The position numbers were made by a program. A stretch of DNA of 64,000 bases from Escherichia coli (GTDB lineage: Bacteria; Pseudomonadota; Gammaproteobacteria; Enterobacterales; Enterobacteriaceae): assembly GCF_050320075.1 (NCBI RefSeq), contig NZ_CP190018.1, one strand, 5' to 3'. Positions 54,001 to 57,000 of this stretch are shown in pieces. How positions within the stretch are numbered: the stretch's first letter is position 1; each line of letters begins with the position of its first letter.

Positions 54001-57000
54001 GGAAGGGGGCTGTGTCGGGCTGGGAGCTGTAAGGCTGCGATTGTCCGGGTGATGTCTGAACATGCGGTATGTTTGCGTTAAACAAGGGGGGAGTATGTGG
54101 ATACTGATTTTCTGGCTTTCAACACCATATTCAGTGTCATCCAGTGTTGCCAGACAACCAACGCTTGCTGTTCATTCTCAGGAGTTCGCCAGCGAAAGGG
54201 CCTGCAGGAATGCGCTGGCTGAGATGAAGAAGGTGAATGTCGGAGAACTGACCCTGAGGGGGATCTGTGTCTCAAAAGAATAGTGGGGTAGAGGGAGCGA
54301 ACCAGGCTGTTTTATCAGGATGTGATTCTGGAGAGTCCGCTCGCCGCAGTCCGGCGACCGAACGGTAGTGAGCGAGCGGACGAGGAAGCGGAACGTCACA
54401 GTTCTTTCATAATGCACCTACGCTGTGTGGTTACATGGGTAAAGGATGAATATCACCATTCTATATCTGTTTCTGAAAAACAGTTTCGCTTGTTGCCTGT
54501 CATTGCCGGCTGGCGTTAGCATACAGAGGCGGTATTATCCCCTGTGATATTACGGGTTATTTTGTTTTGCTCTGTAAGACCTGGCCAGCTATTATGCTGG
54601 CCTTTTTTGTGGTTTATTGTTCGCAGTCCAGCATTGCAAATAATTTTCGTTTCTGTTCCTTCACATACTCAACATCAACAGTACAATCCAGATAACTTAA
54701 CTCATCTTCTGTCCAGGCATTGATGGATTCTTTTATTCGGTGTGTCACATCCGGTGTGAGTATGTCGCGCATTTTCTCAATGGTATCCCGGCTTATTTCT
54801 CCTCGTGGAGATTCAAGCAGAGGAATTACTGCCTGATGTCCCGGAGGGAGTATAAGACGTAATTCATATTTAAGTGTTTCGTTGAGTAAACGACAGAAAG
54901 CACTGTATTTCTCTTTCCGGGTACTGTTCATCGTTTATTCCTTCTCATTACTGTGCATGGTGTAAGATTAAAGCGTTTTGCAAAAGATGTACAAGTTGTT
55001 TTTATCCGGATTTAATATCATGGACTCACTTTTCTTTTGTGTCAGTGGGTACTGCATTGTTTATTAGCCACGGCAATTGTTGATTACCCTGTATTTTTCG
55101 GATGTAGTTATCAATAATATCTTTTGTTTCATCACTATTATTATAAAAAGATTCAAGTGTGCATATAAAATCATCATTTAATGCAGGTAGCAGGATTATG
55201 TTTTTTACTGTGAACCTGATATGACGATTACTCAGTGTTTTTAAATAAAGTTTCTTTCCAATAACAGGATTTACATTGAAAATATTGTAACAGATTTCCA
55301 CTGTGTTTTCTGAAGGTGCGTATAATACGTATACCGGATATTTTTTATGAAGTTTTATCAGGCAATTTATAAAGTCTAAGGAATTTGTTTGTTTTGCTTT
55401 TTCTCGCATCTTATTTACGTGTTGCGAAAAGAAATATGCTTTTGTAAATATAAAAAGAAAAATAAGCGCAGTGTTTAACAGAAATGTGATGGCAATTGTT
55501 ATAAATAACCATTTACCTGAACCTGTATTAAAGATATGGGATGAAAGATACCCACCTGTCAGCAACAAAAATATAAATAATAATGACTGCATTTTTTCCT
55601 GGTTGTTTATTGATGATTTCAGACACAGAAATATAACAACACATGCAAAGCTCCAGAAAAATATAACAGCAAAATCCATATTATCACCTTTTGTCTGACA
55701 GTTCATTTGTTGATGCTATCACGATATTCGCGATGCGGTAAATATATCAATATGTTGGTTTATTTGTGTAATACATTATTTCCCATATGCCATAAATCAG
55801 TCTGTTGACGATAGCTTTTTTCTTTTGTTATTCTGTTCCCGCATTAACTGTCGCTTCGGCGACCAACCAATCTCCCGGTGGTCTGAGAGGGAGGCTTACG
55901 CGACCACACTGTCATCTCAGGATGACCAGCCAATGTTCCGGCAGTCTGAGAGGAGCGCCTTCGGGTGACTGCAATATCCCATGAGCCTGGAAGAGGATGC
56001 CTATATGGCGGCAACATCCGTTTAGCCTCTGGAAACGGATGTCACCAGTAGCTGGTGACTGAGGTACGTTATTTTTACCTTCGGATTACCCGTACGGTTT
56101 TGTATGTCATGAAACTTACGAGTTTTCCTCTCGCAGAGTGGCGAAATGCCTTATATATCTGCGTCTTAAAGATTTTCTGTCTGGCTGCATGAGCTTCTTG
56201 TGACTGTGCGCACGGCATAAGGCCATTTGAAATTTGGCTGCTTGCGTGTGTACGTGGAGTCTGAAGCTGTGCGGCGTCACTTGCGTGCGACCGGAGGGAA
56301 CACCAAGTGACGCCACAACAATCTGCCCTGAAAGCAGCATCACGTAAGGCCTGCCAGAAAATCGTCGCTCGTGACCAGCGTTCTGATGACCGTTTTGTCT
56401 TTCTGACAGCGTCTTTCAGTAACGTGTCCATGCCTTTCCGGCGCGTCCGTTTTCACGGACGGCCACGCCGGAATGTCTTTTTAAACTTCATAATACATGA
56501 GAGGTAAGTGTATTAACTTGTTGAAAAAAGGAATAAATATGAAAAATCGTTCTGATGTCGGAAGGCGTCATCGTAAGATGACGGGGAGTAAAAAATCGCC
56601 CTGGTGCACAGGTAGCGAACTCCTGTAAAAACTCAACATGTGCAAGCTCTGCTACATCAACATCAAACGAGCCAGGAAGGCGAGCAACCGCGTTACAGAG
56701 CCGTCCGTGATGACGAAAAACTAACAATATCAACGATCTGGTCTGTTTATCGGAAGGGCATCTCATGCAGTTGAACTTTCAGAACGGATGGTTTTCTGCA
56801 TCTTTTTTAACAGGGGGATTGACGTTATGTCCCGTAAATCGTCACGTTCCAAAGTTGAAGTCTTTCGCAAGTCATTCATCTCACTTGCCCGTGATTGTGG
56901 TGGCAGCTACGCAACAACCGCTGACAGAATGCGAATTGCCAGATACTTTTTGAATTATTTGCAAGTAAACGGTATCAAACTTCGTCAGACGGGCAGTATT

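Follow-up and report, generated by a model that had tools for sequence, protein, structure and literature searches.

The 64,000-nucleotide stretch of Escherichia coli DNA considered here (contig NZ_CP190018.1; 'the window' below) carries an integrative conjugative element (ICE) and, in its cargo slot, two adjacent minus-strand genes, here called gene 1 and gene 2. One way to understand such a pair is as a single functional unit: the initial annotation of the region suggested a defence or abortive-infection module, with a membrane-anchored effector and a small partner. The perspective favoured here is that the cassette consists of two unrelated cargo genes of the moron type, separately acquired and each perhaps protective alone; we give this reading a probability of about one half. 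That the pair fails as a dedicated two-component system, and comprises two independent modules, is well supported. Both genes are, by sequence, members of existing, uncharacterised families. Their independence is supported by unlike GC content (30% versus 41%), by the mosaic histories of their alleles, and by the absence of gene 2 from the island of Shiga toxin-producing E. coli (STEC) that carries a relative of gene 1.

Two genes, two families

The two genes, on the minus strand where the initial annotation had placed them, and the spacer between them are as follows:

55026..55679, minus strand: gene 1, a 217-amino acid (aa) inner-membrane protein of the ECs_1333-like family (open reading frame, shuffle test, full-length homologues, transmembrane pattern)
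Gene 1 architecture: three predicted N-terminal transmembrane (TM) helices, N-terminus out, and a cytoplasmic C-terminal domain of ~125 aa (conserved TM pattern, positive-inside charges)
54614..54931, minus strand: gene 2, a 105-aa acidic protein (pI 5.4), predicted to be all-helical and cytoplasmic, member of phrog_1853
54932..55025, minus strand: intergenic spacer, 94 bp

The initial annotation recognised no family for either protein, and in a word-indexed search of proteins the two seemed to be orphans of E. coli. This was an artefact of sensitivity: PHROG profiles, tblastn and an exhaustive profile search found families for each. For gene 1, tblastn against plasmid-labelled records retrieved a 223-aa homologue, 41-44% identical over its full length. 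This is ECs_1333 (annotated 'membrane protein') of SpLE1, the ter/ure/iha island of strain O157 Sakai, known in E. coli O157:H7 also as O-island 43/48. The exhaustive profile search, clustered at 50%, enlarged the family to 31 representatives, of which about 15 come near the full length of the profile (207-228 aa). Gene 1 belongs with them in its full length, its three-TM N-terminus and the motifs of its C-terminal domain (WYVLY.P..N..EIG.N, TL.GR, FY, NYI..IK and PW).

The layout first proposed for gene 1, three N-terminal TM helices and a soluble domain, is borne out by conserved hydrophobic runs, at residues of about 1-25, 32-50 and 55-85, followed by a non-hydrophobic domain. Lysine and arginine are concentrated in loop 1 and after TM3 throughout the family; the topology is therefore N-out, C-in. 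The only invariant residues of the C-terminal domain are N132, L149 and Y192, so few that there is no catalytic signature; no acidic residue, histidine or serine is invariant across the family alignment, which is too divergent for a pattern scan. Relatives were retrieved as singletons: between proP-like and lplA-like genes, by a DUF1440 gene, by a DUF2946 gene and, in one case, between a type I-F CRISPR array and csy4. Family copies stand about 10 GC points below their flanks. At the CRISPR locus (L039, 3391-3538 and 4054-4755) the relative has beside it a tandem repeat of 180 bp, in 3.9 copies with 97% matches, that has been mis-called as a 213-aa gene.

ECs_1333 resembles gene 1 in more than its full-length identity and its layout of three TM segments and C-terminal domain. 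The N-terminal motif, the C-terminal PW motif and a GC content of ~30% are common to both, as is the setting, with STAXI-like DNA upstream (75% nucleotide identity) and a gene for type B ribosomal protein L31 downstream (83%). It differs in what comes next, an orphan ColE1-type immunity gene and hok/gef rather than gene 2, and in lying on a degenerate island that lacks transfer genes. ECs_1333 is also far commoner: of 5426 complete E. coli genomes, 587 have it as against 35 with the ICE pair, and in about 574 genomes the STEC copy shows conservation of 99% or more. Between the two islands gene 1 has diverged to 41-44% identity, in flanks that are 75-83% identical in nucleotides.

The orphan immunity gene is an unannotated ORF (open reading frame) of 113 aa with several TM segments, P0053 in our numbering, 46 bp 3' of ECs_1333 (locus L029, 6718-7056) and followed by hok/gef; in Sakai it lies between ECs_1333 and ECs_1330. 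It shares 40% identity with the immunity gene on the ColE1-like plasmid p40EC-6, a gene that lies, as is canonical, between those for the pore-forming colicin and for lysis. P0053 also has a distant similarity to genes that carry the annotation 'colicin E1 family immunity'. Immunity proteins of the E1 type are, like gene 1, small inner-membrane proteins with several TM segments, and have orphan copies in islands; they differ in showing no similarity to it, and P0053 has no room for a cytoplasmic domain of ~125 aa. The label 'colicin immunity protein' found in the 90%-identity cluster of ECs_1333 belongs to P0053, a downstream product unrelated to gene 1. Its presence in that cluster is a clustering artefact, and could mislead automated annotation.

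Gene 2 matches the phrog_1853 hidden Markov model (HMM) with E=7.3e-18, residues 5-102 aligning to positions 60-156 of a profile of 159. By tblastn it is 36-38% identical to ~104-aa proteins of Stx2 phages and of lambdoid and O157 prophages; examples are orf6 of Stx2 phage 86 and WP_000138558 of EDL933, which share its length and the motifs LLLP..H.AV and W..EELSYLDC. By profile search the family has 46 clusters, every one of them from E. coli; a Pfam domain is present in none. The phage copies lie antisense between the holin gene S (with a DUF1327 gene) and the endolysin gene R, convergent with the late operon. An antisense site between holin and endolysin is a classic moron position; bor, a moron expressed in the resident state, lies antisense in the lysis cassette. 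Gene 2 itself is ICE cargo with no lysis genes nearby. Some other family members stand alone in islands, in one case behind a PerC gene. None of these phage and island copies adjoins a relative of gene 1, and the phage neighbours of the family are unrelated to gene 1.

Other searches gave little. Both proteins and their family alignments, compared with Pfam, NCBIfam, PADLOC and the PDB, returned sub-threshold noise only: SLATT_3, ExcA, holins and Bax1-I each matched one or two members, on TM segments. The SLATT_3 match (E=0.019; 15 bits against a cutoff of 45) and that to Phage_holin_3_6 (E=0.12) are typical noise of TM composition. The ExcA model (NF033891) matched 1 of 17 gene 1 family members, at E=0.004 and below its cutoff; homology to ExcA was rejected when hhalign, comparing the family with ExcA of R64, returned a probability of 0.3%. 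The defence-annotation check proposed at the outset came back empty, with no PADLOC-DB 2.0 family at E<=1 for either protein or for their STEC and phage relatives. An IMG/VR scan for gene 1 found nothing, and literature searches on ECs1333 and DUF1327 turned up nothing of use.

The pair is not a unit

The initial annotation tied its functional unit to conservation of the pair across genomes, and across lineages the two genes are not conserved together. A local HMM scan of all fetched loci found no co-occurrence of the two families outside this ICE lineage. In the STEC island and four further contexts there is a gene 1 relative but no gene 2; in prophages and in islands, relatives of gene 2 are present and gene 1 is missing. 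Profile-profile comparison detected no relation between the families, and thereby disposes of the idea that gene 2 is a relative of the C-terminal domain of gene 1.

Nor is either partner indispensable to the other, as each gene is found broken with the other intact. Gene 1 has been broken in three independent ways beside an intact gene 2: by a stop at Y145, by a T-run frameshift and by the loss of 1 bp. In the recurrent allele L012, gene 2 is frameshifted beside an intact 217-aa gene 1; the truncated 52-aa product is present in 18 deposited sequences, and the frameshift is therefore not a sequencing error. The alleles of the ICE are mosaic in history. In one, residues 91-128 of gene 1 form a highly divergent recombinant patch (nonsynonymous and synonymous differences, pN 0.22 and pS 0.25), intermediate towards the STEC sequence.

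The host element and its cargo slot

From position 29203 on, the window is 99.99% identical to the chromosome of E. coli YZLc1-3. The region is an ICE of the SPI-7/pKLC102 type, with genes for TIGR037xx proteins, traD, TraG_N, a SPI-7-type DnaB, replication proteins of the STY4528 and STY4534 families, ArdA, and a PilV shufflon. An ICE of this type has reportedly been found in avian E. coli as ICEEc2; the present element is probably ICEEc2-like, judged by its type, its host and the 2010 UniProt entry name of gene 2, an assignment as yet unconfirmed. The pair lies between traG (50680-52176) and a STAXI RNA motif, beyond which come an EFASI motif and then an integrase-domain gene:

55910-56069, plus strand: STAXI RNA motif, 89 bits
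56547-56669, plus strand: EFASI motif, 71 bits
58707-58860, plus strand: STAXI RNA motif, 138 bits

These motifs, which may work as RNA or as single-stranded DNA, stand 5' of the integrase-domain gene and of the gene block that contains ArdA. ICE relatives in Serratia, Cedecea and Xenorhabdus likewise have STAXI and EFASI motifs 5' of a conserved integrase gene, and their slot between traG and STAXI holds wholly different genes. The pair is therefore cargo in a variable slot. The pair was found in the 35 complete E. coli genomes mentioned above, in every case on the chromosome and mostly in poultry isolates, and also in some Salmonella.

The initial description of foreign, AT-rich cargo beside mobility genes thus stands. 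That both genes are far more AT-rich than their surroundings holds strongly for gene 1 (30.1% GC) and only moderately for gene 2 (41.2%); the window as a whole has 51.4% GC, the adjacent transfer genes 57-62%.

Other cargo lies nearby. The type B (zinc-independent, YkgM-like) L31 gene, at 53574-53837 on the plus strand, is the one shared with the STEC ter/ure island; allele L012 has ccdAB instead. Directly 3' of traG are an 84-aa ORF (52225-52479, minus strand) and a predicted 190-aa lipoprotein (52777-53349, plus strand) with a signal peptide ending LSAC. In the Serratia, Cedecea and Xenorhabdus relatives the same position is held by a conserved protein of 115-132 aa with one long hydrophobic segment. 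The traG-downstream proteins, in the window and in the relatives, are candidates for exclusion functions.

Elsewhere, the same ICE in NZ_CP123240 carries a composite ISApl1-mcr-1-pap2 transposon next to traF (locus L001, 30973-35626), at a site ~3 kb past the right end of the window; this makes the ICE a vehicle of colistin resistance on the chromosome. At the ICE boundary by the kps capsule cluster, the Prokaryotic Genome Annotation Pipeline (PGAP) calls a 78-nt 'tRNA-Ser' (window about 12528-12605; locus L024, 9821-9898); ARAGORN finds no tRNA anywhere in the window. A 2.7-kb ISCro1 insertion of the reference genome is absent from the window.

Starts, spacing and transcription

The remaining features of the locus are these:

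55721..55770, minus strand: two overlapping candidate sigma-70-like promoters 5' of gene 1 (consensus scan only)
55680..55706, minus strand: non-coding stretch over which the ORF continues 5' as far as an upstream ATG
55684..55690, minus strand: gene 1 Shine-Dalgarno sequence AAGGTGA, 4 nt 5' of the ATG at 55679 (read from sequence)
55045-55017, minus strand: weak internal promoter-like site at the spacer between gene 1 and gene 2
54939..54943, minus strand: gene 2 Shine-Dalgarno sequence AAGGA, 7 nt 5' of the ATG at 54931 (read from sequence)
54583..54602: GC-rich hairpin GGCCAGC/GCTGGCC just 3' of the gene 2 stop, T-run on the plus-strand side

Both genes have the plausible ribosome-binding sites first ascribed to them. 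An ATG-initiated ORF of 226 codons, as found in the gene 1 region, appeared in none of 5000 shuffles, of which the longest reached 115; 34 of 5000 shuffles reached the 105 codons of gene 2, and that gene 2 is a real gene is secured by its homologues at the level of predicted protein sequence. For gene 1 the start is the ATG at 55679, as originally annotated, since the ATG at 55706 reads ATA in allele L002 and the relatives all begin at the equivalent of 55679: every member of the family opens with MD/E-x-S/A-hydrophobic-FF, aligned to this methionine. The AAAGGT of the gene 1 leader is conserved in the leader of the STEC homologue. The span initially given for the operon, 54614-55706, is thus right for both genes and wrong for 55680-55706. 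The RefSeq/PGAP call errs in the other direction: it begins at 55592 (M30 of the 217-aa protein) and yields 188 aa, with TM1 removed.

The two genes have the layout of an operon, co-oriented with a 94-bp spacer for which no terminator-like site is predicted and whose fold is weak (minimum free energy -7.9 kcal/mol). Co-transcription is plausible, probably from a promoter upstream of gene 1. The candidates there read TACACA-18-TATATT, with TG, and TTGATA-18-TATCGT; the consensus scan gave 9 sigma-70-like sites against 6.2 expected in shuffles, a yield that is not evidence of function. Downstream of gene 2, an 81-nt region that includes the hairpin folds at -19.5 kcal/mol. Because its T-run sits on the plus-strand side, the hairpin is a proper terminator for a convergent 62-aa ORF on the plus strand, whereas the gene 1/gene 2 transcript would be terminated by it no more than partially. 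A SorX-like Rfam match (54538-54608, plus strand; 28.6 bits, below the gathering score of 46.6) overlaps two terminator-like hairpins between the convergent ORF and gene 2, and most likely is merely terminator structure.

What the genes may do

How could two such genes come to serve their element? In the favoured account they would be transcribed together from a promoter 5' of gene 1, with functions of their own. The product of gene 1 would place its N-terminus in the periplasm, cross the membrane three times and present a cytoplasmic domain of ~125 aa. That domain would be likelier to bind than to catalyse, because no acidic residue, histidine or serine is invariant in the family. The family itself is one of fast-evolving, AT-rich singletons scattered among gammaproteobacterial islands. 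The factor that gene 2 encodes is probably made in the resident state, by analogy with bor-like morons: its family would be expressed in that state because the phage copies lie antisense in the lysis cassette, where such morons are found.

One step further, each gene may act alone as a protective factor of the resident element, gene 1 as a block at the level of the membrane; this we advance only tentatively, as falling well short of an even chance. The block might take the form of superinfection or entry exclusion, of abortive infection, or of immunity to a membrane-acting toxin. Hints of a role in conflict are the AT-rich singletons, the orphan colicin immunity gene that comes directly after ECs_1333 in STEC, one placement by CRISPR-Cas, divergence far above that of the flanks, and the highly divergent recombinant patch at residues 91-128. 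A sharper version, which we consider doubtful, makes the ECs_1333-like family a single-gene, membrane-anchored conflict protein, with phrog_1853 a separate protective factor of the resident state. Here the cytoplasmic domain would sense or bind a component of the invader and the three-TM module would block entry or collapse the membrane; the gene, AT-rich and travelling alone, would spread to ICEs, to the ter/ure island of STEC and to a CRISPR-Cas locus.

Several observations weigh against these accounts. Association with a defence island is one context of about six. Gene 1 matches no model in Pfam, NCBIfam, PADLOC or the PDB, and gene 2 matches just phrog_1853, an uncharacterised family silent on function. 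The structure predictions proposed at the outset gave models too poor to be informative: the single-sequence AlphaFold models have low confidence (pLDDT 52.5 and 62.7), that of gene 2 consisting of helices, and a Foldseek search of the gene 2 model against the PDB and BFVD returned nothing under E=0.5. The case for co-transcription is the shared strand, the 94-bp spacing and the missing terminator, and nothing more. Purifying selection appears weak (pN/pS, from small counts, stands at 0.44-0.66 in gene 1 and at 0.2-0.4 in gene 2), and four independent inactivations among about 10 alleles would fit decaying hitchhikers equally well. Finally, gene 1 and gene 2 may be functionally coupled within this one ICE lineage.

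Other explanations

The selection data lead directly to the view that both genes are functionless or decaying, AT-rich ORFs, probably silenced by H-NS, that are carried along by the ICE and are being lost. H-NS silencing is linked to foreign DNA of low GC content, and the very low GC here is typical of such DNA; the four inactivations, the pN/pS of gene 1 and the presence of the pair in just 35 of 5426 genomes point the same way. This cannot easily account for the families at large, which keep full-length architecture and motifs down to 19-30% identity across many lineages, and have therefore been under long-term purifying selection. With pN/pS still under 1 and the STEC copy conserved as described in about 574 genomes, decay is an unlikely account, though the strongest of the rivals. 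Quite improbable is the module first envisaged, a membrane effector with a small sensor or regulator acting in abortive infection or defence. Co-orientation across a short spacer without terminator, AT-rich foreign cargo on an ICE, a gene 1 layout like that of a TM effector, one gene 1 relative by a type I-F CRISPR-Cas system and gene 2 relatives that are prophage morons are all what such a module would offer. Its two families are nevertheless apart everywhere save this ICE lineage, alleles circulate that have lost one partner and kept the other, and PADLOC is blank for both proteins and their relatives.

We would give equally little credence to gene 1 as the entry-exclusion determinant of the ICE, an analogue of TraS, Eex and ExcA, in which an inner-membrane protein of the recipient would recognise TraG of the donor and block redundant transfer. 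The resemblance is one of form: ExcA, F TraS and SXT Eex are all small proteins of the inner membrane, with TM segments at the N-terminus and a cytoplasmic domain, encoded near mating-pair genes of conjugative elements and fast-evolving, and exclusion specificity determinants such as those of F TraS and SXT Eex diverge quickly and have hypervariable stretches. Gene 1 lies ~3 kb from a TraG_N gene on a conjugative element, has the size and layout of IncI1 ExcA (220 aa), diverges faster than its flanks with a hypervariable patch just after TM3, and has the one relative with a sub-threshold ExcA match at E=0.004. The hhalign probability of 0.3% for the family against R64 ExcA speaks against homology; family members are also found far from transfer genes, as chromosomal singletons without conjugation genes nearby, the Serratia, Cedecea and Xenorhabdus relatives have no homologue in the slot, and allele P0002 occurs with TraG of two lengths (498 and 507 aa), without obvious co-variation. 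The least credible scheme is a toxin-antitoxin or toxin-immunity pair, with gene 1 a holin-like membrane toxin and gene 2 its antidote. Gene 1 does have the topology of a class I holin (three TM segments, N-out, a charged C-proximal segment), related slots are home to ccdAB (L012) and to hok/gef (STEC island), both addiction modules, and gene 1 is inactivated oftener than gene 2. No holin or toxin-antitoxin model reaches threshold, however, and we reject the scheme on two grounds: the allele that pairs a frameshifted gene 2 with an intact gene 1 of 217 aa recurs and is viable, and homologous gene 1 domains precede wholly unrelated downstream genes.

Implications

On the reading of two unrelated, separately acquired genes, the pair is ordinary ICE cargo, and the gain is mainly corrective. 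The start of gene 1 is set right where RefSeq truncates it. ICE genes that had been 'hypothetical' now have relatives elsewhere: ECs_1333 in the ter/ure island of O157 for the one, a moron family of prophage lysis cassettes for the other. Those who mine defence islands should not count the pair as a system.

The residual value lies in a possible stand-alone role in conflict for the ECs_1333-like family. If this family does act as a stand-alone exclusion, immunity or abortive-infection protein, a function would be gained for a gene present, as the STEC copy, in ~11% of complete E. coli genomes, and a compact single-gene module would be added to the catalogue of conflict systems.

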